Shown here: one piece after another, positions 10,766 through 47,200 of the stretch
How positions within the stretch are numbered: the stretch's first letter is position 1
Layout: the number at the start of each line of letters is the position of its first letter
Assembly: GCA_036825195.1 (NCBI GenBank)
Contig: DAISYQ010000004.1
Location: 73,111 to 137,110, forward strand
From: Syntrophales bacterium
GTDB taxonomy: Bacteria > Desulfobacterota > Syntrophia > Syntrophales > UBA2210
Direction: 5' to 3'
DNA: 64,000 bases
The notes under the pieces: generated by a model
The model's database searches: none
What the model was told of the DNA's origin: nothing
What the model saw: the letters and a program-made list of their open reading frames with translations, nothing else
Translations under genes and position numbers: made by a program

Positions 10766-12367
10766 ATGATCAAGATTACCTGCATGGGGGCGGCAGGAAC
10801 CGTTACCGGTTCAAATTACCTCATCGAAGACCCCCGTGGCAAAAAGATACTGGTGGACTGCGGTCTCTTCCAGGGAGGAAAACAGACCGAGTGGCGCAAT
10901 GCGGCAGACTGGGGATTCGATCCCCGAGAGATAGGCACCCTGCTGCTGACCCACGCCCACATCGACCACAGCGGTAGAATCCCCAAACTGGTCAAAGACG
11001 GTTTTCAGGGACGGATCGTCACCTCCCCACCCACGGTACAGCTGTGCGAGGCGATGCTCCTCGATTCGGGACATGTCCAGGAAATGGATGCGGAATGGCA
11101 GACACGCAAGAACAAACGAAAGAGCAAAAAGGGAATTGAACCGCTCTACACCGTAACGGATGCAGAAAAAAGTCTTCAATTTTTCTCACCCGTTGAACGG
11201 GACCGGATTATCGACATCGAACCGGGAATGAAGGCGCGTTTTCTCAATGCGGGACACATCCTCGGATCTTCAATCATAGAGCTGTGGGTAGAAGACGGAG
11301 GCGGGGAAACAAAGATCGTCTTCTCGGGAGATATCGGCAAGAACAGCCAGTTGATCGTCAAGGATCCTGCCGAAGTTGCACAGGCGGACTATCTCTTTAT
11401 CGAATCGACCTACGGCAACCGGCTGCACCGTTCCTTCACGGACAGTACGGCCGAACTGCTCGATGCGATCAACTATGCCGTTGCAAACAACGAAAAGGTC
11501 ATCATTCCGGCATTTGCGGTAGAGCGGACTCAGGAGATACTCTATATCCTGGGAGAGTTTCAGCGTGATGGCTCCCTACCCGATATTCCGATCTACCTGG
11601 ACAGCCCGCTGGCAATCAAGGCCACCGAGATCTTCAGGAAAAACAAGAAATATTACGATGAAGAGGCGATGGAGATCGTGAATAAGGGGTTTGATCCCTT
11701 CGATATGCCCAACCTGAAATTCACCCTCTCTACCGAAGAGTCCATCGAGATCAACAAACGGGCGGGCTCCGCCATCGTCATAGCGGGAAGCGGCATGTGC
11801 AATGCGGGGCGTATTAAACACCACCTCAAACACAACCTGTGGCGTAAGGGGGCCAGTGTCGTCATTGTTGGTTTCCAGGCCATGGGTACGACTGGGAGGA
11901 GAATCGTAGACGGAGAAAAGCGGATCAGGGTATTCGGGGAAGACGTTGCCGTAGCGGCGAAGGTCTTTACCATCGGCGGATTCTCGGCACACGCGGACCA
12001 GAAGGGACTTCTGGAATGGGCGGGTCACTTCGCCGAAGCACACCCCCGTGTTTTCGCCATACATGGTGAGGCAACCGCCAGCGAGACGCTCGCGGAGAAA
12101 ATCAGGACGGATCTCAATCTGGAAGCCTATGTTCCCAAGCTGCGGGAATCCCTGATTCTTGAGGCCCAGACAATGACCCGAACCATGGCCCCCGAGGTTA
12201 CGCCCGAAGAACCGCAACCGGATATGGCCGCCACCTTCACCGGTATCGAAAAAGAACTTGAGGCATTAAAGAGAAGACTCACCGAAAAAGACGGTCGGAT
12301 TCAGGAAGCCGATATGGATCGATTGCGAAATATCGAGGAAGATCTGCGGACGATTCTGCCCGAATAG
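10766..12367 (+). CDS. MBL-fold metallo-hydrolase, beta-CASP RNA-processing nuclease family
   Basis: 533 aa with the HxHxDH motif (THAHIDHSG). The N-terminus MIKITCMGAAGTVTGSNYLIE and the length fit beta-CASP/RNA-specificity-domain proteins. Confidence 0.85.
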   Translation: MIKITCMGAAGTVTGSNYLIEDPRGKKILVDCGLFQGGKQTEWRNAADWGFDPREIGTLLLTHAHIDHSGRIPKLVKDGFQGRIVTSPPTVQLCEAMLLDSGHVQEMDAEWQTRKNKRKSKKGIEPLYTVTDAEKSLQFFSPVERDRIIDIEPGMKARFLNAGHILGSSIIELWVEDGGGETKIVFSGDIGKNSQLIVKDPAEVAQADYLFIESTYGNRLHRSFTDSTAELLDAINYAVANNEKVIIPAFAVERTQEILYILGEFQRDGSLPDIPIYLDSPLAIKATEIFRKNKKYYDEEAMEIVNKGFDPFDMPNLKFTLSTEESIEINKRAGSAIVIAGSGMCNAGRIKHHLKHNLWRKGASVVIVGFQAMGTTGRRIVDGEKRIRVFGEDVAVAAKVFTIGGFSAHADQKGLLEWAGHFAEAHPRVFAIHGEATASETLAEKIRTDLNLEAYVPKLRESLILEAQTMTRTMAPEVTPEEPQPDMAATFTGIEKELEALKRRLTEKDGRIQEADMDRLRNIEEDLRTILPE

Positions 12368-12660: not shown

Positions 12661-13833
12661 ATGAGAAAAACAATCTACATGGACAATGCCGCCACGTCAT
12701 GGCCGAAACCCGAGGAAACCCTGAAGGCAATGGCGGAATATTTTCATTCCATCGGGGCCAGTCCGGGACGTTCGGCACATCGCCTGTCCATGGATGCCGG
12801 ACGGATTGTCCTGGACGCCCGCGAGTCCGTCGCGGAACTCTTCGGCATACAGAACCTTCTCCGAGTCGTCTTTACCAAGAATGCGACGGAGGCACTCAAC
12901 ATCGCCATCTCCGGCCTTTTGAAGCCCGGAGATCATGTCATCACATCCGGAATGGAACACAACTCGGTCATGCGCCCCCTGAGAGTGATGGAGAGACGAG
13001 GTGTAGAGCTATCGATCATCTCCTGCTCCCCTTCCGGTGCGTTGGATCCGGGGGATGTGGAACGGGCCATACGGAGCAACACGCGAGCAATCTATCTGAC
13101 CCATGCCTCCAACGTGACGGGCACCATCATGCCCATCGCGGAAATCGGAAGGATTGCCCGTGGAAAAGGGATCAGACTGTGCGTTGATGCGGCGCAGACC
13201 GCGGGCCTCATCTCGATAGATGTGGAGGACATGTTCATCGATATCCTGGCATTTACCGGTCACAAGTCCCTCTTCGGTCCCCAGGGAACGGGGGGTCTGT
13301 ACCTGGGCGACGGACTGGAAAAAGAGATTTCACCCATCATGACCGGCGGAACCGGCAGCAGATCCGAGTCGGAGGAACACCCGGATTTTATTCCCGACAA
13401 ATACGAGCCGGGCACCCCAAATGTCATAGGAATCGCGGGTCTCAATGCCGGCATCGGTTTTATCAATTCCATCGGTATCGAAACCATACGGGAAAAGGAG
13501 GCAAAGCTGACGGCAATGCTCATGGAAGGTCTCGCATCCATTCAGGGGGTTACGCTGTACGGATGCGGCGATGCGAGCAGGCAGACATCGGTGGTGTCAT
13601 TCAATATAGCGGGAATGGCCCCTTCCGAGGTTGCCATGACCCTCGATGATGAATACAATATCATGTCGAGGCCGGGTCTTCAGTGCGCTCCCGCCGCCCA
13701 CAGGACCATCGGAACCTTTTCAGCGGGAACGGTGCGGCTCAGCCTGGGATACTTCCTCGAAGAGGACGATATCCGGATGGCCCTTTCGGCCGTGGAACAC
13801 ATTATACAGAAGAAAAAAGGAGTCTATTCATGA
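12661..13833 (+). CDS. Class V PLP-dependent cysteine desulfurase / selenocysteine lyase-like enzyme
   Basis: 390 aa. Start MRKTIYMDNAATSWPKP, PLP-lysine context FTGHKSLFGPQG, and NifS/CsdA-like length. Confidence 0.85.
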   Translation: MRKTIYMDNAATSWPKPEETLKAMAEYFHSIGASPGRSAHRLSMDAGRIVLDARESVAELFGIQNLLRVVFTKNATEALNIAISGLLKPGDHVITSGMEHNSVMRPLRVMERRGVELSIISCSPSGALDPGDVERAIRSNTRAIYLTHASNVTGTIMPIAEIGRIARGKGIRLCVDAAQTAGLISIDVEDMFIDILAFTGHKSLFGPQGTGGLYLGDGLEKEISPIMTGGTGSRSESEEHPDFIPDKYEPGTPNVIGIAGLNAGIGFINSIGIETIREKEAKLTAMLMEGLASIQGVTLYGCGDASRQTSVVSFNIAGMAPSEVAMTLDDEYNIMSRPGLQCAPAAHRTIGTFSAGTVRLSLGYFLEEDDIRMALSAVEHIIQKKKGVYS

Positions 13834-14411
13834 TATACGAAATCGATGCTAGGGGACTTGCCTGTCCTCAACCCGTCATCATGACAAAAAAAACGATTGA
13901 ATCAGGGAAAGACTGTGTTGTCATCGTCGACAACGAAGCCGCCCGTGACAATGTGTGCCGTATGGCAACAAACCTGGGATGTGAAACAGATGTTGAGGAA
14001 CGGGAAGGGTATTTCCGTATCCGCGTTACCCGGGGAACAGCCCGGAAAGAGAAGAAAAGTGTCGCACCCGCTACGGGTCCGACGGTGGTTGTCTTCCCCT
14101 GTGACCGCATGGGAAAGGGAGATGACGAACTGGGGAACATCCTGATCCGGGGATTCCTCCACACCCTTGGAGAGATTTCCCCGAAGCCCGACGTGATGAT
14201 ATTCTTTAACGCAGGTGTTAAACTGACAACCGAAGGCTCCGACGTCATCGAAGACCTTCGCGCCCTGGAAGGTGAAGGGGTTAAAATCCTGGTCTGCGGA
14301 ACCTGCCTCGATTTCTTCGGACTGAAGGACAGACTGCAAGCCGGTATCATCTCAAATATGTATGACATCGCCGAGACCATGCTGTCCGCCGGGAAAGTTG
14401 TCAGGATATGA
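13830..14411 (+). CDS. yedF: YedF-type selenium metabolism protein (TusA-like N-domain + DsrE-like C-domain)
   Basis: I take the start at the ATG at 13830 (ATGA overlap with the upstream stop) inside ORF 13683..14411. MIYEIDARGLACPQPVIMTKK carries the TusA CPxP motif. 193 aa, and the C-terminal half resembles YedF. Confidence 0.8.
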   Translation: MIYEIDARGLACPQPVIMTKKTIESGKDCVVIVDNEAARDNVCRMATNLGCETDVEEREGYFRIRVTRGTARKEKKSVAPATGPTVVVFPCDRMGKGDDELGNILIRGFLHTLGEISPKPDVMIFFNAGVKLTTEGSDVIEDLRALEGEGVKILVCGTCLDFFGLKDRLQAGIISNMYDIAETMLSAGKVVRI

Positions 14412-14638
14412 CGGACCCAGAGCCCTTTTGCGTCATTCTCTTCGACTCGACGAGCGAAGCGCTCCTCGCGGAAAAACTCTTCAAGAAAGCGGACATCCCC
14501 CACAAGGTAATCCCCGTGCCACGCCATCTCAGCTCCGACTGCGGCGTCTGCATACGGTTCTCTGCCCGCGACACCCAGCGGGTGAAGACAGCCCTCGACG
14601 GCAGGGTTGCCGTTCGCTCCATCTCCCCCCTTGATTGA
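14408..14638 (+). CDS. DUF3343-type putative Se/S carrier protein
   Basis: 76 aa. ATGA overlap with the yedF stop. Has the family-typical FCVILFDSTSEALLAEKLFKK...PVPRHLSSDCGVCIRF. Confidence 0.7.
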   Translation: MTDPEPFCVILFDSTSEALLAEKLFKKADIPHKVIPVPRHLSSDCGVCIRFSARDTQRVKTALDGRVAVRSISPLD

Positions 14639-14645
14639 CCGACAT

Positions 14646-14676
14646 TTGACAAACGGTATGTAATCCTTATTATAAT
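14646..14676 (+). promoter_or_regulatory. Sigma-70-type promoter candidate for the arsR / Sec-hesB / cutA unit
   Basis: Perfect TTGACA (14646-14651) and perfect TATAAT (14671-14676). The spacer is 19 nt, which is suboptimal. A 5-3-5 palindrome ATATC-TGT-GATAT lies downstream at 14696-14708. Confidence 0.4.
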
Positions 14677-14801
14677 CGTACATTGACGATAGGCGATATC
14701 TGTGATATTGAACCCTATCCAATATATGGCAATGGCAGAGTATGGAGAATCTTTTCTGTGTACCATTGCGAAGAAACTTGATAAGAAGGTATTAACTACC
14801 G

Positions 14802-15161
14802 ATGACGACAGATGAATATTCAGAAGGGCCGCGCTTTGTGGACATGGGGATTCTCGAAAAGACGGATCATGAAACATGTAAAAAAATGCTGGCACGGCTC
14901 TCGAAGGGGCTGGCTCATCCGGCGCGGATCGAAATTATCCGTATGCTTTCCGACAAAGCACCGGAGAAGCCCTACATATGCTCCGATATCGTCAAAGCCC
15001 TTCCCCTGGCCCAGGCGAGTGTCTCTCAGCACCTGAAGATACTGAAGGAAACGGGCTGGGTATACGGAGAAAATGACGGACCGCGCATCAAATGCAGTCT
15101 CGTCGGGAACATCATGGAGTTTTACAGAAAACTGACAATACAAGCTGTCCAAAAGCAGTAA
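14802..15161 (+). CDS. ArsR/SmtB family metalloregulatory transcription factor
   Basis: 119 aa with a winged-helix core: LAHPARIEIIRMLSDK...ICSDIVKALPLAQASVSQHLKILKETGWV. Confidence 0.85.
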   Translation: MTTDEYSEGPRFVDMGILEKTDHETCKKMLARLSKGLAHPARIEIIRMLSDKAPEKPYICSDIVKALPLAQASVSQHLKILKETGWVYGENDGPRIKCSLVGNIMEFYRKLTIQAVQKQ

Positions 15162-15184
15162 AAACTATATAAGGAGAAATAACG

Positions 15185-15499
15185 ATGTTTGCAGTATCAG
15201 AAAAGGCACAGGAAATGATCAAAAAGGCCCTGGAATCGAGGGAGGATAAACTTCCCATCCGGCTGGTGTATACCGCTGGATGAGGGGGGCCATCCATAGG
15301 AATGTCTCTGGATGAGGCTAAGGAAGATGATAAGGTCTTTGAGGAAAACGGTATCACCTTTATTATGGACGAACAGTTATTCGAACAGGCGAAACCGATA
15401 AATATAGATTTCATCTCGACGGCAGCAGGCTCAGGGTTTTCCATCACCTCCAGCCTGTCCGGCGGCTCATGCGGTTCATGCGGAGGGAGCTGCAGCTGA
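15185..15499 (+). CDS. HesB/IscA-like selenoprotein (in-frame UGA = Sec at codon 33, nt 15281-15283)
   Basis: The ATG at 15185 has AAGGAG upstream. The frame reads ..PIRLVYTAG-TGA-GGPSIGMSLDEAKEDD.. and continues in frame into track ORF 15302..15499. The TGA sits at the position of the scaffold Cys in IscA/HesB proteins. The C-terminus is GSCGSCGGSCS, and a hairpin lies immediately 3' of the TGA. Confidence 0.75.
15288..15319 (+). promoter_or_regulatory. Candidate bacterial SECIS hairpin
   Basis: GGCCAUCC (15288-15295) pairs with GGAUGAGGCU (15310-15319): 5 bp, a 2-nt bulge, then 3 bp. An inner GGA/UCU pairing leaves a small apical loop (AUGUC) about 20 nt 3' of the UGA. Folded by eye only. 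Confidence 0.4.
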
Positions 15500-15505
15500 T
15501 AAGAA

Positions 15506-15829
15506 ATGTCTGAATCCCACAAATACTGCGTCATACTGACCACATGCGGAGACAAGGAGGATGCCGAAAAGCTGGCATCGTTGTTGATTGAATCGCGACT
15601 GGCGGCATGTGTTCAGATAACGGGCATTACCAGTTTTTACGAATGGAACGGCGCAGTCAACAGAGATACTGAGCAGTTGCTGCTGATAAAGGCGGCAACT
15701 GCTCAGTATGACAAGATCGAAGCATTTATTTCACAGAATCACCAGTACGATGTCCCAGAAATCATACAGATACCGATAACCGACGGCAGCGATGCATACC
15801 TGCAATGGATTGCTGCAGTCACCTCATAA
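15506..15829 (+). CDS. cutA: Divalent-cation tolerance protein CutA
   Basis: 107 aa. ..VILTTCGDKEDAEKLASLLIESRLAACVQI..TSFYEWNG...E..LLIK is the CutA1 signature. Confidence 0.9.
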   Translation: MSESHKYCVILTTCGDKEDAEKLASLLIESRLAACVQITGITSFYEWNGAVNRDTEQLLLIKAATAQYDKIEAFISQNHQYDVPEIIQIPITDGSDAYLQWIAAVTS

Positions 15830-15890: not shown

Positions 15891-16232
15891 CTATATCGTA
15901 AGCAGGTGTTCGTTGTTTTTTAAAAGCTCGGTTAACGGCATCCCCCAGTATTTGACTTCGACACCCAGGTTTCTCAACGTCTCCGTCACTCCCAGTTGAT
16001 CCGCACAGGCTTTGCACGCGGTTACGTGAACACCCTGTTCCAAAGCTTCTTTGATCTTCGTCTGTATAGTGGCATCTTCACTGACGAGTTGCGTGGTCGC
16101 ACCCCAGATGATGAGGGTAACCTCTTCCCACCAGTGATGGATCAGAGAGTTGATGGTATACATGAAAACCATCTTTTCCGCCGTAACCGGATTGTCGTTA
16201 GTCCACAATACGTAGAGATGTGTTTTGTCCAT
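15891..16232 (-). CDS. DsrE/DsrF-like sulfur-relay family protein
   Basis: 113 aa. The small alpha/beta pattern with ..VHVTACKACADQLG.. is typical of DsrE-related proteins. Confidence 0.55.
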   Translation of the reverse strand: MDKTHLYVLWTNDNPVTAEKMVFMYTINSLIHHWWEEVTLIIWGATTQLVSEDATIQTKIKEALEQGVHVTACKACADQLGVTETLRNLGVEVKYWGMPLTELLKNNEHLLTI

Positions 16233-16347: not shown

Positions 16348-17511
16348 CTATTGCAAAAGGACAGCCTGCGCGGCTGCAAGACCCTTCCCATGTTCAAAGG
16401 TGTATCCCGCCTTTGCGAACCCCTTCTCTATCCCTCCCACGGTGGCGAGGATATCCGAAGCGTTCACGACGCCCATGTGTCCCACGCGGAAGTACTTTTC
16501 TCTGATCTCGGCAAGGAGACCTCCCGCAAGGATGACGCCGGCCTCCCCGATCATCGAGAGGACGGTGCCGTCCACCCCCGAGGGGAAATAGGGAGCGGTA
16601 AGGGTGTTGGCCGCCCTGTCCGCGCTCACCGGAATCTGGTTCATGCCCAGGGCGGTCATGGCAGCCTTGAAGGCGCTGCTCATGTGGCGATGACGGGCAA
16701 AGCGGTTGTCCATCCCCTCGGCCAGGATCTGTCCGAGACTGACATTAAGGGCCCACACGAGGTTGACTGCCGGTGTTCCGAAGTAGGCGGCCTTGCGGTT
16801 CTCGTATGATTCCATGATGGGGAGCCAGTTGGTCCAGTCGGAGTAGTAGCTTCCCACGGGTGTGCGTCGGCTTTTGAATGTCTCTATCGCCCTGGGGCTG
16901 GCAACGAGAAGGGCCAGTCCGGGCGGGACGCCGATGGCCTTCTGGCAGGCGGTGAGGGCGATATCCACGCCCCATTCCCCCTGACGCAGTTCTTCGCCGG
17001 CGACGGAACAGACACCGTCCACGATGCACAGGATACCGTATTTCCGGCACAGCCCTGCAAGACCTTTGACGTCGGTAAGGACAGCGGTGGAGGTATCGAC
17101 ATGGGTCACCGTCATCACCTTGTAGTCGGCCTTCTTGATCTCGGCTTCGACCTCTTCCAGAGTGGGTGCGTCCCCGATGGCCGCCTTCACGTGTGTGACC
17201 CGTGCTCCGTAGCGTTCAAGAATTGCGCCGAAGCGGTCGCTGAAATATCCCGTATTCACCACCAGGGCATTGTCTCCCGGTTCGATGACGTTGCATGCGG
17301 CCATATCCATCGCCATCGAGCCGGAGCCGGCAACGATGAAGGGCTGTCCACCGGGTGCAAGGAATACCTCGCGCATCCGTTCGAGCGCCTGCCCCATGCA
17401 ATCAACAAAGGAGGGGGCCACATGACTCGTCGTCGGCATACCCATGGCCCGCATAACCTCGGGAGTAAACTCGATCGGCCCGGGAATCATAAGAAGTTTT
17501 CTCTGTTTCAT
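16348..17511 (-). CDS. Class V aminotransferase (alanine/serine--glyoxylate/pyruvate aminotransferase family)
   Basis: 387 aa with the start MKQRKLLMIPGPIEFTPEVMRAM typical of the AGXT/SPT family. Confidence 0.85.
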   Translation of the reverse strand: MKQRKLLMIPGPIEFTPEVMRAMGMPTTSHVAPSFVDCMGQALERMREVFLAPGGQPFIVAGSGSMAMDMAACNVIEPGDNALVVNTGYFSDRFGAILERYGARVTHVKAAIGDAPTLEEVEAEIKKADYKVMTVTHVDTSTAVLTDVKGLAGLCRKYGILCIVDGVCSVAGEELRQGEWGVDIALTACQKAIGVPPGLALLVASPRAIETFKSRRTPVGSYYSDWTNWLPIMESYENRKAAYFGTPAVNLVWALNVSLGQILAEGMDNRFARHRHMSSAFKAAMTALGMNQIPVSADRAANTLTAPYFPSGVDGTVLSMIGEAGVILAGGLLAEIREKYFRVGHMGVVNASDILATVGGIEKGFAKAGYTFEHGKGLAAAQAVLLQ

Positions 17512-21401: not shown

Positions 21402-21578
21402 GATCCATCGGCCGCTGATAGAGTCGATCCTTGGTCCATAGGCCGGGCAAAATGTCAGAGACCGGGCTTGACTCCACGAGATGTTCTGGTATTATTGTCC
21501 GCATTTCGCCGTTGTTTCCCGTGAATGTGCATGAACGGTGAACCTGCAGCAGCGATCGTCAAGGAAGGAATTGATACT

Positions 21579-21866
21579 ATGAGCATTTTCGAAGCGATGA
21601 TGTTGATTTGCTTTGGCGTGAGCTGGCCCATATCGATCGCAAAATCCATACGGACAAAGGTCGTTTCAGGGAAAAGCCCTCTCTTTATGGGAGTGCTCTG
21701 CTTCGGCTATGCCTGCGGCATCACGCACAAGCTCCTCTACTCCATGGACTGGATTATCCTGCTCTATATCCTTAATCTGATCCTGGTGTCGATCGACTTA
21801 ACCCTCTATTACCGATATCTGCCGAAAGAAGGCCAGATCGCTGCGGCATCAAAAAGCGGACAATGA
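21579..21866 (+). CDS. Small 3-TM membrane protein, PQ-loop/SemiSWEET-like (tentative)
   Basis: The start is taken at the ATG at 21579 (AAGGAAGG upstream) inside ORF 21525..21866. 95 aa with three hydrophobic segments. The layout ..SWPISIAKSIRTK.. resembles PQ-loop proteins by eye. Confidence 0.4.
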   Translation: MSIFEAMMLICFGVSWPISIAKSIRTKVVSGKSPLFMGVLCFGYACGITHKLLYSMDWIILLYILNLILVSIDLTLYYRYLPKEGQIAAASKSGQ

Positions 21867-21972
21867 CGGATCACGCCTTTCTCACAGGGTAACAGTATTT
21901 CCTCTTGTCCTAGGGATATCGAAGAGACCGGCTGTGGCTCCAGACCGGCCAACTGCGGGACATGGCATGAGG

Positions 21973-22233
21973 TTATCCGTCAAGAATCTTCTTTGTGACG
22001 GAATTGTCTTTCTTTAAGATCTTCGAGCCCCGCGTGATCTTACAGAGGCTTATTCCATACTTAGATGCGATACTCCTCTGGGTGCTGCCCGCATGAAGCT
22101 CTTGCAGAAGCTTCCAGCGGAGAGAAAGATCCTCGATCTCTCTCGGGGTCAGGATCTCCTCCATGAATGTCCTCATTTCCTCAAAATCGGATATGTCTGT
22201 CAATACGTGTATCAGATCATCTTCAGAAACCAT
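21973..22233 (-). CDS. TrpR-like (YerC/YecD family) DNA-binding protein
   Basis: The start is taken at the ATG at 22233 (GGAGG upstream). ..FMEEILTPREIEDLSLRWKLLQELHAGSTQRSIASKYGISLCKITRGSKILK is the YerC/YecD pattern. Confidence 0.75.
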   Translation of the reverse strand: MVSEDDLIHVLTDISDFEEMRTFMEEILTPREIEDLSLRWKLLQELHAGSTQRSIASKYGISLCKITRGSKILKKDNSVTKKILDG

Positions 22234-22396
22234 ATTCTCCTCCGTTTCTACCGGCAGGTACATACCCAAACACACTACAAATGGCAAGATATTTTCCGGA
22301 GATAGAAAGAGGCGGTACGATACACTCCGGCATGGGAAAAGAATGAGACCACCGGCACGGATGAATATTGTTACAAGCCCCGAGTATCAGCAGGGA

Positions 22397-23179
22397 TTAC
22401 TCCATATCTTTTTCGATTACCTTCCTGACCTGCTCAACAAGTTTTTCCCGTGTTTCATAGGTGTATCCTTCAACGGAAATGGGCTTGTGCATTATTATTT
22501 TCATATCGCCCGGCAGAATCCGCAGGCTCTTCTTGGGCAATATGCTTCTCCCCCCGACCACGGTTACGGGGAGTATCGGCACCTGTGCCTCCAGGGCCAT
22601 AACGAACCCTCCCTTTTTAAAGGCTTTGAGTTTTCCATCGGGACTTCTCGTACCTTCGGGGAAGAAGACCACGGAAGAACCGGCCCGTATCTTTTCAACC
22701 GCCACCTTGAGACTTTGCCTTGCCTCTTCAGATTTTCCTCTGTCGATGTAGATATGTCCCACCTTTTCGCAGGCAATTCCGAATATGGGGACCTTCTTGA
22801 GTTCTATTTTCATAACCCATCTCAGCGGCAGCGGCAGATACCCTATGAGGGCAAGCACGTCATAGTGACTCTGATGGTTCGCCATCACTATGTACGGCTG
22901 ATCCTTATCCACAAATTCATCTCCGCTCACCGTCATGGAAACCCCCGACAGCGTCAGGTTCAGTTTAGCCCAGAATTTACTTATAGAATCGACGCCATTC
23001 CCCTCGGAATTGAAGTACGCGATAATCATGGCGAGGGAGGCCACTACGGCAGTATCCACCGCCATCAAGACCAAAAGCAGGGGTCGATAAAGACAAAAAA
23101 CCGATTTGATCACCTTTTCTCGTACCTGCTCACCCGTGAAATCATAAGAAGGAAAATTAATACGTGGCATGCGATACAT
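22397..23179 (-). CDS. plsC: 1-acyl-sn-glycerol-3-phosphate acyltransferase family protein
   Basis: 260 aa with an N-terminal TM segment, the H(X)4D motif (ANHQSHYDVLAL) and FFPEGTRS. Confidence 0.85.
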   Translation of the reverse strand: MYRMPRINFPSYDFTGEQVREKVIKSVFCLYRPLLLVLMAVDTAVVASLAMIIAYFNSEGNGVDSISKFWAKLNLTLSGVSMTVSGDEFVDKDQPYIVMANHQSHYDVLALIGYLPLPLRWVMKIELKKVPIFGIACEKVGHIYIDRGKSEEARQSLKVAVEKIRAGSSVVFFPEGTRSPDGKLKAFKKGGFVMALEAQVPILPVTVVGGRSILPKKSLRILPGDMKIIMHKPISVEGYTYETREKLVEQVRKVIEKDME

Positions 23180-23407
23180 GATAAACCTCCTTTACAAATT
23201 CAATTGGCTACTGCACCGATTCCTTCAATACGGTAAAATAAAAATGAGTTGTTAAGATGGTTTCAGTATAAAGCTAATCCTGGAAGCAATCAAGCTATAT
23301 TGTGAATAAACTTCCGCTGAGCGATAGGTCCGGCATATATCGCTCCCGGTTACGGAGCCAGAAAAAGTCCGGTGCCTTCTTTGCGAGAGGGGTGCCGATC
23401 CGGATAC

Positions 23408-24736
23408 TTACTTTACACGAAGCTTTCTCCTCAAGGTGTACCACTTATCTATCCTGTCTTTAATGACCTTCTCGTACCCTCTGCTGGTGGGAGAATAGTA
23501 TACCTGACCCCGTAACTCTTCAGGCAGATATTCCTGGGGGACCTGGGCGTCGGGAAAGTCATGGGCATATTTGTACCCCCTGCCGTACCCGAGATCTTTC
23601 ATCAGCCTCGTCGGAGCGTTACGGATATGGAGCGGGACAGGAAGGGTGCCCGTTTTCCGTATGTCTCCCTTTACCCTGCCAAAACCGGTATACAGGGCGT
23701 TGCTCTTCGGAGCGGTCGCAAGATAGACAGCGGTCTGCGCAAGGGCAAGCTCTCCCTCCGGAAGCCCGATAAACTGAAATGCCTGAAGAGCGGATACCGC
23801 GACACCCAGAGCCGTCGGATCGGCGTTCCCTACATCTTCGGATGCAAACCGAATCATCCTGCGAAGGATGAAGAGTGGATCTTCACCGGCTTCGAGCATG
23901 CGCCCCAGCCAGTAAAGGGCGGCATCCGGATCACTTCCTCTGAGGCTCTTGTGGAGGGCCGAAATCAGGTTATAGTGCTCCTCTCCCTTCTTGTCGTACT
24001 GGAGGGCCTTCCTCTGAAGCGCCTCTTCCGCTATTGAGAGGGTGATCGTTTCTCCTTTTCCGACAAGCGCCGCAGCAGCCTCAAGGTTGTTGAGTGCCGT
24101 GCGGGCATCTCCATCCGCCGCCCATACCATGTGATCGAGGGCCTCATTATCCACGGACAGGGAAAGGGTGCCGAGGCCGCGCATCTCATCGTTCAGCGCC
24201 CGCCTCAGGATTGTGGTCAGGTCATCGGAAGAATAGGGTTCAAGGACCATGACGCGCGCCCTGGACAGGAGGGGCGATATGACCTCAAAGGAGGGATTCT
24301 CGGTGGTGGCACCGATCAGCGTAATCAATCCACTTTCCACATGGGGGAGAAAGGCATCCTGCTGTGCCTTGTTGAAGCGATGGATCTCGTCGACAAACAG
24401 TATGGTCCTGTTCCGGTGATGGCGGAGCTGGGTTTTTGCCTCTTCAATGATCGCCTTGATATCTTTGACACCGGCGAGAACGGCGGAGATCGTCTCAAAA
24501 TGGGACTTCGTCTCACGGGCAATGATGCGCGCCAGTGTCGTCTTACCGGAACCCGGCGGTCCCCAGAAGATCATGGAGAAGAGATTGTCTTCGGCGATGG
24601 CTCGGCGGAGCAGACTGCCGGGACCTATAAGGCGGGACTGTCCCTGAAAATCATCGAGCGTCTCAGGCCTCATCCGGTCAGCAAGAGGACGGGCCACCGT
24701 CTCTATCTCTTTATGCCCTTCGTCAAACAGGTCCAC
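23408..24736 (-). CDS. rarA: Replication-associated recombination protein A (AAA+ ATPase)
   Basis: 442 aa. Walker [22 protein letters not shown], and a MgsA C-terminal domain. Confidence 0.95.
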
Positions 24737-24816
24737 GTAACGCCACCCCTTGAAATTATATCATCGTACCGTTCGATCTTCCCTGAAGGGGCACCATACC
24801 ATACTTTGAGAAAATT

Positions 24817-25077
24817 CTACATGCCCTTCCGCTTCTTCACGGTATCCGCAATTTCGAGTATGGTGGTCATCTTGTCTTTGGGCGGCGCATTGAAACAGCG
24901 GTTCCACTCATCGTCCGTCAGGTATTCTCTCAGATACTCTTCTACCGGTATCAGGTTCTGCCAGCATCCGAGCGTCCTCTGGCAGGGGAGAGTACCTTGT
25001 TCGCGCCTGCAGTAGGCAAAGGTAACCTCCCCTCCCAGTCGGGGACAGCGCAATATCAAATCGTCAAATCTATTCAT
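24817..25077 (-). CDS. Small Cys-containing hypothetical protein
   Basis: 86-aa ORF between trpB2 and rarA on the same strand. It contains five Cys residues and I recognise no family. Confidence 0.35.
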   Translation of the reverse strand: MNRFDDLILRCPRLGGEVTFAYCRREQGTLPCQRTLGCWQNLIPVEEYLREYLTDDEWNRCFNAPPKDKMTTILEIADTVKKRKGM

Positions 25078-32063: not shown

Positions 32064-32954
32064 TTATTTGCTGTTCGCGACCTCCACACCCGCGAGTTCA
32101 ACGACAAACTCACTCGCCTCGGACGCAGGCATAACGAACGCCAGCATGAAGGGAATATCGGTATCGGGCTGTATGTCTATGTTGGAATATTCTCTACCGT
32201 ACGGATTGGAGAGTTCTTTTCTGATTTCCTCGCCGGTCAGGCTCTTCAATTCGTCATCCGTCAGTATGGTCCCGCAGTTCGATTCCTCTTGGGAAAGAAC
32301 GGCCCCGGATGAATCGAGGATTTTCCCCTTGATCTTTATAGTGGAGATCGCAACTTTGTTCTTATTGACGGCAAAACCTTCGATTATCATGATATCTCCG
32401 ACAATCGGGTTCTTTACAAACCGCTCTTTCACATTGACCAGGCTCACCTCCAATCCGTACACCCCCGTATCGGAAGCGGTATGGGCCTCTATGCCAAAGA
32501 TCTTTTCTATCCTCGGCAAGACCACGTCTCTTGCATGGGGCGATATCCAGAGATATATTCCTCCGCAGAGGAGAACAACCAGCAGGCAGAGCGCTATGAT
32601 CCACCCTGCCCGCCTCGGTCTTTGCATGACCTCTTTTTCTGAAGGGTCCGTTTCTTCCATGATTTCATCGAGCTCATCGTAGGATTCTCTGTATTCGGGC
32701 TGTCCTTCATCATCTTCTATGTCGTCTTCGCCAAACATTTTGTCTATGATATCGTCGGCATCCTCATCGTCTCCTCCCTTGTGGATATCGCCTCCGGCCT
32801 CCATTGATTCCATCAACGAAGCAATCTCTGCCAGGGGGTTCTCCTGGAAGAATACCGCATCGCATCGGCTGCACCTGACCCATACCCCCTCGCCATCTAT
32901 CTTCGTCTTGTCGAATCTGTACTGTGTCCCGCATTCTTTACACTGGATAATCAC
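32064..32954 (-). CDS. MJ0042-type zinc-ribbon protein with DUF3426-like C-terminal domain
   Basis: 296 aa. MIIQCKECGTQYRF...VRCSRCDAVFF zinc ribbon, an acidic linker, one TM segment, and a beta-rich C-terminus. Confidence 0.7.
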   Translation of the reverse strand: MIIQCKECGTQYRFDKTKIDGEGVWVRCSRCDAVFFQENPLAEIASLMESMEAGGDIHKGGDDEDADDIIDKMFGEDDIEDDEGQPEYRESYDELDEIMEETDPSEKEVMQRPRRAGWIIALCLLVVLLCGGIYLWISPHARDVVLPRIEKIFGIEAHTASDTGVYGLEVSLVNVKERFVKNPIVGDIMIIEGFAVNKNKVAISTIKIKGKILDSSGAVLSQEESNCGTILTDDELKSLTGEEIRKELSNPYGREYSNIDIQPDTDIPFMLAFVMPASEASEFVVELAGVEVANSK

Positions 32955-32987
32955 GGCTTTGCTCCTTGGCGGTTTTTTATGAAACGA

Positions 32988-33566
32988 TCACTCTTCAACG
33001 ACATAAATATCCGGCAGACACCTGAACTTTTCATCAAAATCAAGTCCGTATCCTACAACAAATCCCTCGTCCAGATCAAATCCCACATAATCCGCATCGA
33101 TGGAGACCTGTCTTCTCTGCTTTTTATCTATCAATGTGCAGATCCGTACGGAATGTGGTCTTTTCTTCTCGAGTCGCTCCTTCAGAAATGCAAGCGTAAT
33201 CCCGGTATCTATGATGTCTTCCACAACAACCACATCCTTCCCCTCTATACCCGTTTCAATATCCTTTGAAATGGTTATCTTCCCCGAACTTACCGATTCT
33301 GAACCATAACTTGCCAGTCTCACAAAATCTATCGTATGGGGAATCCTCAGGTACCTCGTAAGATCCGCCAAGACTATGAAGGCTCCCTTGAGGACCCCAA
33401 CAAGCACGACGTCCTTCCCGTCAAGATCGTTCGAAATCTCGTCTGCCAGGTCTTTCACCCGCCTGTCGATCATCTCTCTTGAATACAGGATTCTCTTTTT
33501 CAGTTTTTCCACTATCCGCCCTTTCCATATGATGTCGCGCCGCAGTTCATGATCGGTCCACGGCAT
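32988..33566 (-). CDS. hpt: Hypoxanthine phosphoribosyltransferase
   Basis: 192-aa ORF. PRPP-binding motif DVVVVEDIIDTGITL and the end ..GYGLDFDEKFRCLPDIYVV. The exact start is uncertain, and the ORF overlaps the upstream gene by 20 nt. Confidence 0.9.
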   Translation of the reverse strand: MPWTDHELRRDIIWKGRIVEKLKKRILYSREMIDRRVKDLADEISNDLDGKDVVLVGVLKGAFIVLADLTRYLRIPHTIDFVRLASYGSESVSSGKITISKDIETGIEGKDVVVVEDIIDTGITLAFLKERLEKKRPHSVRICTLIDKKQRRQVSIDADYVGFDLDEGFVVGYGLDFDEKFRCLPDIYVVEE

Positions 33567-34380
33567 CTCTCGTATAACAGGTTATAAACTTATCTATATT
33601 CTCTTGAATGATAGCCTCCCCTCTTCTGAGTTCCTCCGGTGTCTCGAATCTGGAAGTGAGGCTGAGGAATATCTTATCGAATTTCGATCGTTCACACCCG
33701 AGGGCATCGTAATCGATGTGGCTGATCATGTACTGTGAACCATCGAAATAGTATTTTCCGAAGCGGTTCGCATCCGTCGACCGGAAGGGCCAAGAAATCT
33801 TCAAAGAGAAGAAGTCCAAGGCGATATTACGAAGCCTGCCCTCAAATCGATCAGGATGGGGAACTTCGTATATCCCATCGCTTATAAAGCGGAAATATTC
33901 CTGCACCAGGTCGATATCGGTAATGCACAGGCCGTAGAGATACCAGTCGTCAATTGTCCTGATCAGGGCGCTCTTTTCTTCACGGGATATGAAGTGATAA
34001 CTGGGGCAGAAATGCCCGTCGCACAGCTCCCGCCCGTAGAAGGACACGTCTCTCATGTCCACCCCGTTGTTCTGAAGGGGATGGAGAAGGCAGCCCACCC
34101 TTTTCTCCTCACCGTCGAGAAACCCCAGGTACTCACAGCAGTATATTACTTCGTAGAGCTTCTCCTGATTCTCGAGTCTCTGTATCTTATCCGAAAATAT
34201 CTTTAGATCGGCCTCCCCTCTGACCGTTTTACGAAATATCTCCGTCCTGGTTCTCAGCCTTCCAACCAGAGAGTCCCGTGTACTGTCCGCGTAATTGTAG
34301 AGGCCGCAACAGGCCCCGCAGGATTTGCACAAATCGGGTTGACAGAGATGGATAAATTCCTCTCCCTTCATCAAACTCAA
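33547..34380 (-). CDS. Cys-cluster protein with an N-terminal CxxCxxCC (YkgJ/UPF0153-like) motif, function unknown
   Basis: 277 aa. LCKSCGACCGLY near the N-terminus, plus further Cys/His positions (CCEYLGF, CLLHP, CDGHFCPSYH). Confidence 0.5.
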   Translation of the reverse strand: MSLMKGEEFIHLCQPDLCKSCGACCGLYNYADSTRDSLVGRLRTRTEIFRKTVRGEADLKIFSDKIQRLENQEKLYEVIYCCEYLGFLDGEEKRVGCLLHPLQNNGVDMRDVSFYGRELCDGHFCPSYHFISREEKSALIRTIDDWYLYGLCITDIDLVQEYFRFISDGIYEVPHPDRFEGRLRNIALDFFSLKISWPFRSTDANRFGKYYFDGSQYMISHIDYDALGCERSKFDKIFLSLTSRFETPEELRRGEAIIQENIDKFITCYTRDAVDRS

Positions 34381-43179: not shown

Positions 43180-44007
43180 TCAGAACACCCTGTCCACAGT
43201 ATCCTTTATCTCGCCATAATAAAGAACAGGTCCATCTAAGCACACCCGCTTGTGGCCGATCATACAGTGCCCGCAAACTCCCATGCCGCATTGCATACGG
43301 CGTTCCATTGAAAGAATTATCTGGCTGACTCCAAAGCCCTTATTCATGAGCTCTTGCGATACAAACTTCATCATTATACCCGGACCACAAATAACAACTA
43401 TGGCATTACCAGCACTGATCTCAGTCTTATTGAAAAGTTCGGTAACCAATCCTACATTTCCCTGCCAATCTTGATCAGGTCTATCGACTGTAAAAAGAGC
43501 CTCCATCCCCCTTTTGTCTGTCTGAACCTTATTAAAAACAAAAGAGTCTTTATAAATCATATCATCGGGTGTGCGGGCTCCATGCAATAATTTCAATTTA
43601 CCGTACTGGTCTCTTCTTTTCATGAGGGCATCAATCAATGACCACACCGCAGCAAGCCCAATACCACCGGTCACAATATAGATATCTTTACCTTTCATTA
43701 TCTCCAAGGGATAGCCATTCCCAAATGGACCCCTAATACCGATAGTTGAGCCAATCTCTAGATCTTTGACTCCATTGGTCGCCCTGCCTTTTTCTTGAAT
43801 GGTTGTTTGAAAACTACCATTCGATCCGAGAACAGATGCGACACTCACTGGAAATTCGCCATATCCGAACAAGGTAACTTCGACAAATTGTCCTGGTTTT
43901 GCGTCAAAAAATCGATTTTCCATTGATATGGTAAGAGTCCTGATATCAGATGTTTCATCTTTGATACCTTTAATTTTAGCCAGTTCTGGAATAAACGTAT
44001 TCCTCAT
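43180..44007 (-). CDS. FAD/NAD(P)-binding ferredoxin-reductase-type subunit with C-terminal [2Fe-2S] motif (AsrB / PyrK / sulfhydrogenase gamma-like)
   Basis: The start is taken at the ATG at 44007 (AGGAGGGG upstream) inside ORF 43180..44076. GQFVEV.., GPFGNG, VTGGIGLAA, and the C-terminal CGMGVCGHCMIG. Confidence 0.8.
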   Translation of the reverse strand: MRNTFIPELAKIKGIKDETSDIRTLTISMENRFFDAKPGQFVEVTLFGYGEFPVSVASVLGSNGSFQTTIQEKGRATNGVKDLEIGSTIGIRGPFGNGYPLEIMKGKDIYIVTGGIGLAAVWSLIDALMKRRDQYGKLKLLHGARTPDDMIYKDSFVFNKVQTDKRGMEALFTVDRPDQDWQGNVGLVTELFNKTEISAGNAIVVICGPGIMMKFVSQELMNKGFGVSQIILSMERRMQCGMGVCGHCMIGHKRVCLDGPVLYYGEIKDTVDRVF

Positions 44008-44009
44008 TC

Positions 44010-45065
44010 CTACCCCTCCTGTATTTTCTTTGCAGCGTCTCGGATGCTCATGTGTCCGGGACAGAAATCCCGACATCGGCCGCAGCCCACACAGAAGGCC
44101 GTTCCATATCTGGTTGCATCGTAATAAAATTTGTCTAGTACCCGATGTCTGAATCTGTCTTTAACATCCGGTCTGACATTTACATTGCCGGCCATCGTTG
44201 CAAATTTCTCATAATGACAGGAATCCCAGGTCAGGTTCCGGCTCCCCTTGGTGCGCTCCGGATTTACCCTTTCTACGACACTGAAACAGTGGCAGGTAGG
44301 ACAAACCATATTGCAGGCTCCACAAGTAAAGCATTGGTTTGTAAATTCAGACAAAAGTGTATCGAGGTCACAATCCGATATATTCTGCGCAATCTTCTCT
44401 ATATCAAGTTTCTCTGGGAGGGCGTTATTCACCATCTCAATTTGATTATCTCGTTTTTCCTTGTCCTTTCTGCTCGCTTTTTTGAAGTAATCGGAGCTGA
44501 GCAATTTCTCACCAATATCGGTCCCCGCCCTCACAAAATAGTATTCACCGATATCGGTAAAAAGGAGATCATACCCAATCTCGATATCAGGACCTGCTCC
44601 GGATGTGCTGCAGAAACAGGTCTGATGGGGCTCATTACAGGTTATACCAATAATGATACAGTTCTCTCTCTTGTTACGGTATCTTTTATCGTCGAAATCT
44701 TCCTCAAGAAGCACCTTATCGATCCGAAGTAGTGCTGAAATATCACATGGATGCATTCCAAAGAAAACCCTTTTCTCCCTCCATTCATCACCAACATCCT
44801 CAACTGTTATATTGCCATCCGAATCTTTTTCAAATTTATACAGCACTTGGTTATTGGGGAAAAAAATATTCTTAGGAGAAACCATCGTGGTTGTGTAATC
44901 CAGCATCAATTCTTCAAATTTATTGATAGGTGCGAAGGTTGTATAGCTGTATTGTGCAGTTCCCCCTCCCTTCAACGTTGGGCCAATAATTTCATATTCT
45001 TCCTTCAAGTCATTAAAGAACTTTTCCAGATCTCTCTTATCTATTAATTTCTCCATGGCAATCAT
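44010..45065 (-). CDS. Multi-[4Fe-4S] electron-transfer subunit (AsrA / sulfhydrogenase beta-like)
   Basis: The start is taken at the ATG at 45065 (ATGA overlap with the upstream stop). Cys clusters are CNEPHQTCFCS, CFTCGACNMVCPTCHC and CVGCGRCRDFCP. Confidence 0.75.
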   Translation of the reverse strand: MIAMEKLIDKRDLEKFFNDLKEEYEIIGPTLKGGGTAQYSYTTFAPINKFEELMLDYTTTMVSPKNIFFPNNQVLYKFEKDSDGNITVEDVGDEWREKRVFFGMHPCDISALLRIDKVLLEEDFDDKRYRNKRENCIIIGITCNEPHQTCFCSTSGAGPDIEIGYDLLFTDIGEYYFVRAGTDIGEKLLSSDYFKKASRKDKEKRDNQIEMVNNALPEKLDIEKIAQNISDCDLDTLLSEFTNQCFTCGACNMVCPTCHCFSVVERVNPERTKGSRNLTWDSCHYEKFATMAGNVNVRPDVKDRFRHRVLDKFYYDATRYGTAFCVGCGRCRDFCPGHMSIRDAAKKIQEG

Positions 45066-47200
45066 TTCTCTTTCTTCGCTTTGTAGATCCGACAGGCATA
45101 TCCTCTTATCGTGCACGAACCCGTATCATCATCCCATGGCTTACGGTAATCGGTTACCAGATTCTGGTTTGCATCAGGGTACACCCAGTCTCCCCAACCG
45201 AACTCCACATTAACAACTTTGGGATGTGTGCCTTCTTGGAGTCTGGCTTGCTGTTTCATCCTGCCACGGTATGTTTCGATCCAGATCCAGTCGCCATCCT
45301 CGATGCCGTATTCCTTTGCAGTATCAGGATTTAGATATGTGGTTGGCGGCAATGATTTATTCATTAAACGATCGACACACCTGTATCCTGAAAGCATCAT
45401 GATTTCACTTTTATAGTCTGTCATAATCAGAGGGTATTCCTCTGTCATGTTAAAAAGTCCCTTCAGAGGCGCTTTTACCTCCTTAAATCGCGGCACAGGA
45501 TCAGCACCATATTTTTTCAGTGTATCACAGCGCAGTTCTACCTTCCCGGAAGGCGTACCATACCCTACCACCTTTTCTGGGTCGTATTTCCATTTCCCGG
45601 AGACATGATGTACTTCGTCGCGGAATTTCTTCCAGGTAAGCCCAAGAGGTTCACAGACGTAATCCAGAATCTGCTCCTCATTGTCCCAGAAATAGTCATT
45701 TAACCCGACTCTTTTGGCCAATTCATTAATAAACTTCATGTCAGACCACGCCTCGCCAGGCGGATCAACTAATTTGGGATTTGCTCGAATCCCACCATGC
45801 CATGCCGGCCAGTATCCCACCGTCTCGTGTTCGTGCATGTTTGCTGCAGGTAAAACAATATCCGCAATATTTGTAGTGGCCGTTGGAAAGAGTTCCGAAA
45901 AAACCAAAAGCTCAAATTTTTTGAATGCCTCTGCCGTAGCCCGCGAATCAGGATACGTAATAAGTGGATTGTTGACATATCCAATCCCAACTTTGGGTAA
46001 ATATGGGTCCTCTTCTAATAAAGCCCTCACCAACGCCTGAGTTGGGACATACCCGAAACGTGCTGCCATTCCGGTTTCAAACCCGCCTATAGTTCGTTCA
46101 GGGCTTCGAGGATACTTGCGCAAAACGTCTTTCATATCACCGATCATGAATGAACCCGTGCGCCTGTATTTTGCACATTCAATCTCACAAAAACCTGCTG
46201 TGGGTGTATTGACGTTTGCCGTAAGGCCTCGGATAACATTGATGGCCCGCAATGTCTGAAATGATGCCACACTACCTTCCAATGCATTACCCGTAGCAAT
46301 AACACTGGGCGGATTCGCTGCAATAACTCGCGCCACCTCGATAATCTGCTCTTTGGGCACCCATGTCAGATCAGCAACCTCATCCAGGGTAAATGTTTTA
46401 CATTCTTCAACAATATCATCAAATCCAATTGTCCATTCTTCTATATATTTCTTGTCATACAGGCCTTCTTCGATAATAACTTTATTCAGTCCCATCGCCA
46501 AGACACCATCACTGTTTGGTCGCGGCTTGAGCCAATAATCACAGTCCGAGGCATGCATAGCTTTTTCCGGCCATAACTCTATATTTTTCGGATCGATGAT
46601 GATCACCTTCATGCCATTCGTTATACAGCGATTCATATCGTACCGGCCAATCATGTTAAAGGTCCCTCCACAATGAGCCGGATTTGCACCCCAAATGACC
46701 ATTGATCTGGGCTCGCCTTCCATCCTAGATTGTATATAGCGGGACCCAAACGTAAAACTACATGATTCAGTACACTGCACACCGCAGTAATTACCTGGCG
46801 TAACGGTATTGGGGGAACCAAAGGCCGAAGCGAATCTCTGCCCCATTGCGAATTCCATACCCTTCGGTTCACCAAGAATCATTACCAACCTTTCAGGACC
46901 ATACTTTTCTTTTACCTCAAGCAGTTTGTCGGCTATCTCGTCCAAGGCGTCATCCCAAGTAATCTCTTTCCATCGACCTGAACCTTTTTCCCCTACTCGC
47001 CTGAGCGGTTTTGTCAGTCGGTCCGTGCTTTCGATCGTTCCTATCAAATGATCCGCTCCCTTCTGAACCGAACAAATATGAACAGGATAGCCCGCAGCAC
47101 CTTTGATATCGATTACCTTTCCATCTTCAATGGTAACATTAAAATAGCAGTGATTCGGGCAAATATGACAAGAGGTAATTTTTTCTTCTCGTGTAGCCAT
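45062..47200 (-). CDS. Cytoplasmic molybdopterin (Mo/W-bisPGD) oxidoreductase catalytic subunit, substrate unknown
   Basis: 712 aa. N-terminal FS0 motif CHICPNHC...C with no Tat/Sec signal. The family-typical layout runs through the C-terminal ..GDWIWIETYRGRM.. barrel domain. NYCGVQC is a possible metal-ligand region. Confidence 0.85.
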   Translation of the reverse strand: MATREEKITSCHICPNHCYFNVTIEDGKVIDIKGAAGYPVHICSVQKGADHLIGTIESTDRLTKPLRRVGEKGSGRWKEITWDDALDEIADKLLEVKEKYGPERLVMILGEPKGMEFAMGQRFASAFGSPNTVTPGNYCGVQCTESCSFTFGSRYIQSRMEGEPRSMVIWGANPAHCGGTFNMIGRYDMNRCITNGMKVIIIDPKNIELWPEKAMHASDCDYWLKPRPNSDGVLAMGLNKVIIEEGLYDKKYIEEWTIGFDDIVEECKTFTLDEVADLTWVPKEQIIEVARVIAANPPSVIATGNALEGSVASFQTLRAINVIRGLTANVNTPTAGFCEIECAKYRRTGSFMIGDMKDVLRKYPRSPERTIGGFETGMAARFGYVPTQALVRALLEEDPYLPKVGIGYVNNPLITYPDSRATAEAFKKFELLVFSELFPTATTNIADIVLPAANMHEHETVGYWPAWHGGIRANPKLVDPPGEAWSDMKFINELAKRVGLNDYFWDNEEQILDYVCEPLGLTWKKFRDEVHHVSGKWKYDPEKVVGYGTPSGKVELRCDTLKKYGADPVPRFKEVKAPLKGLFNMTEEYPLIMTDYKSEIMMLSGYRCVDRLMNKSLPPTTYLNPDTAKEYGIEDGDWIWIETYRGRMKQQARLQEGTHPKVVNVEFGWGDWVYPDANQNLVTDYRKPWDDDTGSCTIRGYACRIYKAKKEK

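Follow-up and report, generated by a model that had tools for sequence, protein, structure and literature searches.

HesB-like proteins are an established family of prokaryotic selenoproteins, with 11 members counted in one study, which also found that Syntrophus aciditrophicus encodes 19 selenoproteins including one HesB-like protein (PMC1794560). The family is recognized by a UxGP motif (PMC13188914), U being selenocysteine (Sec), and a HesB-like selenoprotein of Methanococcus maripaludis has been verified by 75Se labelling (PMC11097638). Here we describe a gene of this kind in a 64,000-nucleotide stretch of the genome of a Syntrophales bacterium (contig DAISYQ010000004.1), of the same order as S. 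aciditrophicus; this whole stretch is referred to below as the window. A first-pass annotation of the window had proposed that positions 15185-15499 encode a HesB/IscA-like selenoprotein, split at an in-frame UGA by the open reading frame (ORF) caller. Our analysis leaves us highly confident that 15185-15499 is indeed one HesB/IscA-like selenoprotein gene, with its UGA recoded to Sec and a short hairpin serving as its selenocysteine insertion sequence (SECIS). The gene is of an already known kind, having Sec in place of the first metal-binding Cys of IscA/HesB proteins. It falls in the subfamily modelled by NF038090. Like the rest of the HesB-like family, which is reported in deltaproteobacteria, Clostridia, and Methanococcus, it combines a small IscA/HesB fold with Sec at the first Cys, the UxGP motif, Cys-containing homologs, a SECIS hairpin just 3' of the UGA, and truncation by gene callers. 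We found no difference in kind from these proteins, although the cluster of selenium-trafficking, ArsR, and CutA genes in which the window gene resides goes without mention in the reviews that we consulted.

The reading frame begins at an ATG at 15185, which is preceded by a Shine-Dalgarno sequence (AAGGAG, 15171-15176, + strand) read directly from the DNA 8 nucleotides (nt) upstream. It continues through a TGA at 15281-15283, located 96 nt from the ATG, and ends at 15497-15499 with the first of two adjacent stop codons (TGA TAA, 15497-15502). Thus, a single frame of 104 residues on the + strand passes through the UGA, which is residue 33 (U33) and forms part of a U-G-G-P motif. The ORF called by the gene finder, 15302-15499, starts 117 nt from the ATG in this same frame. 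The coordinates, the AAGGAG, both spacings, and the shared frame all match those given in the first-pass annotation, and our translation is identical to it. GenBank holds only the 65-residue tail of this protein, as a "hypothetical protein [Syntrophales bacterium]" (HOO90753.1 / HPQ43201.1), and 18 of 20 database homologs are similarly shortened calls of 58-70 residues. The earlier claims that the gene had been split by the ORF caller and that it belongs to a reported but often mis-annotated family (the NF038090 model exists) are therefore both borne out. It should also be noted that the window protein and a 99%-identical copy in locus L016 read G-U-G-G-P-S-I-G around the Sec (15257-15298 in the window), lacking one of the Gly residues that precede the Sec in their closest relatives (GG-U-AGPSLG) and having an Ile in place of an otherwise nearly invariant Leu.

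The family assignment was examined with profile hidden Markov models, for which Cys was substituted for U. The full-length protein scored 103.4 bits against the IscA_HesB_Se model of NCBIfam (NF038090; cutoff 85) with the entire profile aligned (positions 1-101 of 101), and it also passed the Pfam model PF01521 (32.9 versus a cutoff of 26.3), which upholds the HesB/IscA membership originally proposed. The equivalog models for IscA, ErpA, and SufA were all missed by wide margins (34-43 bits versus cutoffs of 117-181). In alignments to IscA structures, the UGA column coincides with the Cys of the GGCSG loop in both 1nwb (Aquifex, E = 5e-11) and 1s98 (E. coli), so the TGA does fall at the first conserved Cys of IscA/HesB proteins as had been suggested. 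The homology to the A-type carriers IscA, SufA, and ErpA (PF01521; 1nwb, 1s98, 1r94, 2apn) is full-length, suffices to establish the fold, and includes their three-ligand layout, with one ligand in a G-G-C/U-x-G loop and two or three near the C-terminus. The C-terminal Cys motif of the window protein, C96-x2-C99-x3-C103 (15470-15493, + strand), aligns to the CGCG of the IscA structures; C99 and C103 are invariant in our alignment A2 and C96 is nearly so, and these three residues are the presumed partner ligands of Sec33. Unlike the A-type carriers, which have the arrangement C-x(~60)-C-x-C, the window protein has Sec as its first ligand and terminates with C-x2-C-x3-C rather than C-G-C, and its gene is located outside of any isc or suf operon.

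Comparative evidence for recoding comes from the relatives of this gene. We assembled 95 related loci, 15 of which were obtained by scanning a single genome for each species (metagenome-assembled genomes of Syntrophales, Smithella, and Desulfobacula) and 80 by scanning metagenomes. The codon aligned with the UGA is TGA in 83 of the 95 loci and TGT or TGC in the remaining 12, with no third alternative, so the exchange at this one column is strictly between Sec and Cys. The protein is conserved on both flanks of the UGA down to 35% identity, the TGA loci spanning a range of 35-99%, and the N-terminal 32 codons are kept across all 95 loci. The alignment to Cys-containing homologs called for in the first-pass annotation likewise places a Cys at the UGA column, both in the 12 loci above and in P0001, a 70%-identical protein that was one of two full-length database matches checked. 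Recurrence of an in-frame TGA in 83 of 95 loci, with coding conserved on both of its sides, is far more than chance would produce. A tandem arrangement in locus L090 (L090:2628-3306) contains both forms side by side: at this column the first HesB-like gene encodes Cys (GMGCSGVQLG) and the second carries TGA (GVG-U-GGPQLG), with an ArsR gene located 5' of the Cys copy.

These same data bear upon the simplest alternative, namely that the TGA is a true stop and the region contains either a decayed IscA-like gene or two independent ORFs of 32 and 65 residues. The public annotation, with its lone 65-residue ORF, would agree with this explanation. However, nonsense at one and the same codon is not expected in 83 loci of 35-99% identity that all have both halves in frame, with a Cys/Sec column at this position. 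Furthermore, in the 65-residue ORF the PF01521 domain is without its N-terminal half, and the ATG of this ORF is simply the conserved internal Met of a G-M-A/S-L-D-E segment. We regard a genuine stop as the least credible of the explanations considered.

A second alternative is that the UGA is recoded to something other than Sec, either through near-cognate insertion of Trp or Cys or by a genetic code in which UGA is a sense codon, yielding a full-length protein without selenium. Selection upon the full-length frame is evident and fits this explanation, as does our failure to find Sec machinery in the 64-kb window. Yet UGA serves as a normal stop in 16 of 42 confident window genes, including the selenoprotein gene itself, and the codon at 15281 is the sole in-frame UGA among them; because of this, a reassigned genetic code is excluded. 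Also contrary to recoding without selenium, the column switches exclusively between TGA and Cys codons, an RNA hairpin specific to the Sec forms lies 3' of the UGA, HesB-like proteins are a verified selenoprotein family (PMC11097638), and in two distant loci (L075 and L080) a neighboring ArsM gene has an in-frame TGA as well. Recoding without selenium is thus very improbable, and Sec remains the reading we favor by far.

We next consider the RNA hairpin. The conserved SECIS candidate spans 15304-15318 (+ strand) and consists of a 5-base-pair (bp) stem (15304-15308/15314-15318, GUCUC/GAGGC) capped by a UGGAU loop (15309-15313). Its stem starts 20 nt and its loop 25 nt past the UGA; the spacing between UGA and loop in the bSECISearch consensus is reportedly 16-37 nt, which would include this value. 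Bacterial SECIS elements are stem-loops found a short distance 3' of the UGA, with an apical loop that is small and includes a G (PMC1088965), as the UGGAU loop does. The relatives usually have the stem GGCUC/GAGCC, and their loop consensus is UGGAY. Among 60 distinct Sec forms (alignment A3), the stem is paired in 99.3% of cells, a value equaled by 0 of 500 shuffles and well above the 20-46% of controls slid along the alignment. The stem also covaries: the second pair (37-49) is found as G-C in 24 sequences, G-U in 19, U-G in 13, and U-A in 4, and the third pair (38-48) is C-G in 59 and U-A in 1, which amounts to one double change.

Moreover, the hairpin is specific to the Sec forms. A complete stem is present in 58 of 60 Sec forms versus 2 of the 8 Cys-form sequences that served as the control (Fisher p = 7e-6). 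The same distinction is visible at synonymous positions, as the wobble position of the Ala/Ser codon is T in all 60 Sec forms versus 6 of 8 Cys forms (Fisher p = 0.012), and the Glu codon has G there in 59 of 60 Sec forms, with the lone exception being compensated, versus 4 of 8 Cys forms (Fisher p = 4e-4). Synonymous sites in the hairpin are thus frozen in the Sec forms and vary in the Cys forms. A conserved stem-loop 3' of the UGA, which the first-pass annotation had made a test of its proposal, does exist in the relatives, although it occupies 15304-15318 and places its loop 25 nt from the UGA, unlike the hairpin originally drawn with a loop about 20 nt past it. Separately, RNAalifold predicted a 4-bp helix enclosing the UGA (A3 columns 10-13 with 20-23; 15278-15291 in the window). 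Its third pair joins two Gly wobble positions (CG in 27 sequences, GC in 11, GU in 4, UG in 4, unpaired in 14) and covaries to an extent that 0 of 20000 permutations equaled, and in the window it is an A-G mismatch.

The hairpin that had originally been proposed, at 15288-15319, is a longer and bulged structure. It is real in so far as it constitutes the minimum free energy fold of the window sequence (15287-15319, + strand, -11.9 kcal/mol), but it is particular to the window and not conserved. The long and short hairpins are mutually exclusive. We weighed the possibility that the gene does encode a selenoprotein, with the long hairpin being the working SECIS here and replacing or extending the short one. 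Energetically the long hairpin would seem superior (-11.9 versus -6.1 kcal/mol for the short one), its apical region contains a G too, and three substitutions particular to the window, CCA TCC ATA (Pro-Ser-Ile) as compared to CCC TCN CTG in the relatives, each add a pair to it. Conversely, the long hairpin gains nothing in stability over shuffled sequence (z = -0.10), single-sequence folding stability being uninformative at this locus (z = -0.10 and -1.38). Across the relatives it is 67-72% paired with no covariation, a level that shuffles attained in 116 of 500 and 431 of 500 cases; the 67% figure, from the set of 60 relatives, is the one matched by 431 shuffles. It would also tie up the UGGAY loop, which is invariant in the conserved hairpin, and its only other occurrence is in L016, which is 99% identical and therefore lends no independent support. 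As a family-level SECIS the long hairpin was rejected, being paired in 67% of cells and no better than shuffles; as the element operating in this particular gene it is unlikely, and the short hairpin at 15304-15318 remains the preferred candidate.

Several observations weigh against a selenoprotein gene with the short hairpin as its SECIS. First, the hairpin is small, at only 5 bp and -6.1 kcal/mol, and faces a rival fold of -11.9 kcal/mol in the window. It also resides mostly within the codons of a conserved peptide, M-A/S-L-D-E, and its conservation must therefore be partly protein-driven, so the argument for it lies with the wobble sites and the compensatory pairs; the Cys-form control comprises a small set of 8 sequences. 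Second, the protein misses TIGR00049 narrowly (52.2 versus 58.8) and does not reach TIGR01911 (HesB_rel_seleno), the model used by the reviews and the one that includes the 75Se-verified Methanococcus protein. Having scored 37.6 bits against a TIGR01911 cutoff of 66.35, it belongs to a different subfamily, which shares the fold family and the Sec position with TIGR01911 and has a longer, Cys-rich C-terminus (C-x2-C-x3-C). Third, neither selA, selB, selD, nor tRNA-Sec was detected within the 64-kb window by Rfam, ARAGORN, and NCBIfam searches: ARAGORN reported no tRNA of any kind in the window, Rfam gave no match, and NCBIfam annotation of 30 further window ORFs included no selA, selB, or selD. 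Fourth, a screen of the window for single-TGA read-through, together with a scan of its gaps for short candidates, yielded no second selenoprotein gene. Lastly, the function of HesB-like selenoproteins is described as unclear (PMC11097638), with none established for any member. Indirect support for a Sec-decoding host genome is provided by the adjoining YedF and DUF3343 genes, both markers of selenium metabolism, and by the precedent for Sec decoding in Syntrophales (PMC1794560).

The selenoprotein gene is embedded in a run of genes on the + strand. At 12661-13833 is a class V pyridoxal phosphate-dependent cysteine desulfurase (TIGR01977, 481.7 versus a cutoff of 377) that is near the selenocysteine lyase SclA, but below the cutoff of the SclA model itself (NF040779, 408.8 versus 525). 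It is followed by YedF, a sulfurtransferase-like selenium metabolism protein with TusA and DsrE domains (13833-14411; TIGR03527, 224 versus 110; PF01206 and PF02635), and by a putative selenium/sulfur carrier of the DUF3343 type (14408-14638; PF11823, E = 1.3e-20). These assignments confirm that the neighbors are selenium/sulfur trafficking genes, as originally noted. After a spacer of 163 nt comes an ArsR/SmtB-family regulator (14802-15161; PF01022, E = 1e-9; NF033788, 51.6, just under the cutoff of 55), which ends 23 nt ahead of the selenoprotein ATG. The full 104-residue coding sequence with Sec33 (15185-15499) is then followed, only 6 nt past its stop, by a CutA1-family gene (15506-15829; PF03091, E = 4.5e-36). 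Converging upon this cluster from the - strand are a DsrE-like gene (15891-16232; PF02635, E = 4.2e-5), which is convergent with cutA, contains Cys without any in-frame UGA, and is common only to L016 beyond the window, and a class V aminotransferase gene (16348-17511). Upstream of the desulfurase, 10766-12367 encodes a metallo-beta-lactamase-fold beta-CASP ribonuclease-like protein, whose gene has this position in L024, L037, and L038 as well; it is sub-threshold for a model named "type VII CRISPR-associated Cas14" (391 bits versus 800).

Among described systems, the selenium gene clusters of Lin et al. 2015 (PMC5322559) closely resemble this neighborhood in having YedF, DUF3343/PF11823, and an SclA-like class V lyase adjacent and in the same orientation. 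Those clusters center upon selD, selA, and selB, whereas the window has no sel gene within its 64 kb, and the study, which established that YedF and DUF3343 belong to selenium metabolism, leaves HesB, CutA, and ArsR unmentioned (PMC5322559).

The spacer upstream of arsR contains a conserved block at 14646-14708 (+ strand) that combines a promoter-like site with two dyads. The former is a sigma-70-like TTGACA-16-TATTAT at 14646-14673, in which 11 of 12 positions fit the consensus; the latter are ATCGT-N6-ACGAT (14675-14690), of which the window has a single copy, and ATATC-TGT-GATAT (14696-14708). Across 7 syntenic loci this block hardly changes, while the spacer surrounding it varies. A search for inverted repeats with 6-nt seeds in the spacer upstream of arsR found none; the dyads, having 5-nt arms, emerged from the alignment only. 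Judging by this pattern of conservation, 14646-14708 is a candidate promoter and ArsR operator for arsR-hesB(Sec)-cutA, a probable operon that ArsR may control.

To place this arrangement within the family, the loci were grouped into a close clade (Sec forms ≥60% identical to the window protein), distant Sec forms, and Cys forms. ArsR is directly upstream in 15 of 24 close Sec loci, 2 of 46 distant Sec loci, and 0 of 7 Cys forms, CutA is directly downstream in 15 of 20, 0 of 46, and 0 of 12, respectively, and the selenium/sulfur carrier is within 700 nt upstream (≤700 nt) in 14 of 22, 0 of 33, and 0 of 7. The ArsR/cutA context remarked upon in the first pass is therefore real, though its conservation is confined to the closest clade. 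Accordingly, the cluster of SclA-like desulfurase, YedF, selenium/sulfur carrier, ArsR, HesB(Sec), and CutA is clade-specific, and together with the conserved block at 14646-14708 it constitutes a modest new point. The distant Sec loci had mixed neighbors, such as PilT-like ATPases, tetratricopeptide repeat proteins, and cytochromes, with no consistent functional context across the family. The only Cys form in the close clade of the window protein (L035 and L039, 66% identical) is found without the ArsR, CutA, and selenium carrier neighbors that are typical of the Sec forms of that clade.

Two distant loci having an ArsR neighbor, L075 and L080, each contain an ArsR-HesB(Sec) pair beside a gene for the arsenite methyltransferase ArsM (L075:1737-2540 and L080:1739-2530). 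In both, the ArsM frame is interrupted by an in-frame TGA (AYTA-U-I-S/A-G-A) and runs for ~65 codons more; these ArsM genes are probably Sec-containing and split by the gene caller. The pair in L075 is followed by ACR3, ArsF, and ArsG.

The read-through screen of the window flagged several other candidates, all of which were rejected. The region at 21971-23236 looks non-coding, 23408-24907 is a RarA-like ATPase gene with an unrelated upstream TGA, and 32064-33581 resolves into an HPRT gene and a separate gene. The NCBIfam annotation included a formate dehydrogenase alpha-like molybdoenzyme gene (45062-47200), which is free of in-frame UGA. As a selenoprotein candidate, the DsrE-like gene (15891-16232) was likewise rejected: it is complete from its own ATG, the same-frame TGA upstream of it being in a spacer that overlaps the end of its neighbor. 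Elsewhere, a ~2-kb interval (21402-23407) has no convincing gene, and long ORFs of its two strands overlap there (22163-23236, +; 22397-23179, -), of which the + strand translation looks non-protein-like. Another region carries a gene pair like AsrA/AsrB (sulfhydrogenase beta/gamma-like) as well as the gene for a 712-residue molybdopterin oxidoreductase that has distant similarity to formate dehydrogenase alpha, with an aldehyde:ferredoxin oxidoreductase-like gene and a tripartite ATP-independent periplasmic (TRAP) transporter nearby (43180-47200, 49925-51736).

From the arrangement of the gene and its relatives, we can propose a working model. As the ribosome arrives at the UGA at 15281-15283, the coding-internal stem-loop at 15304-15318 would act as a bacterial SECIS and recruit SelB-GTP-Sec-tRNA(Sec), such that the UGA would be recoded to selenocysteine; both the Sec insertion and the binding of SelB to the short hairpin are steps that we infer. 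In the resulting protein, Sec33 would stand in for the first of the three ligand Cys of an A-type carrier, with C96, C99, and C103 giving the rest. The arsR-hesB(Sec)-cutA genes would most likely be cotranscribed from the 14646-14708 region, downstream of the genes for the SclA-like desulfurase, YedF, and DUF3343. Our best guess as to the role of the protein is a carrier whose Sec/Cys site may hold an Fe-S(e) cluster or some selenium or metalloid species, and which the adjacent lyase/YedF/DUF3343 relay may supply.

The cluster itself, together with its echo in the arsenic clusters, suggests selenium or metalloid handling rather than generic Fe-S delivery. More speculatively, the HesB(Sec) protein of this clade could be part of a dedicated ArsR-regulated selenium/metalloid module instead of a generic Fe-S carrier, a proposal that we consider tentative and rather improbable at present. 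The SclA-like lyase, YedF, and DUF3343 proteins may then pass selenium to the Sec/Cys site of HesB(Sec), CutA may be a partner in this, and the ArsR-HesB(Sec) pair may have been recruited into arsenic clusters beside Sec-containing ArsM, as in L075 and L080. If this were true, it would be the first functional assignment for the HesB-like selenoprotein family.

Irrespective of its function, the window gene and dozens of its relatives, deposited as "hypothetical proteins" of 58-70 residues, can be corrected to full-length selenoproteins, and this correction would also mark the respective Syntrophales and Smithella lineages as Sec-decoding. Comparison now defines the SECIS of the family as a UGGAY loop on a stem of a minimal 5 bp, lying within the codons of G-M-A/S-L-D-E, a definition that gives a clean contrast between Sec and Cys forms in synonymous-site constraint. 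The conserved links to ArsR, CutA, and genes of selenium trafficking, joined in two loci by one to arsenic clusters with a probably Sec-containing ArsM, provide a testable functional lead some 20 years after the discovery of this family.

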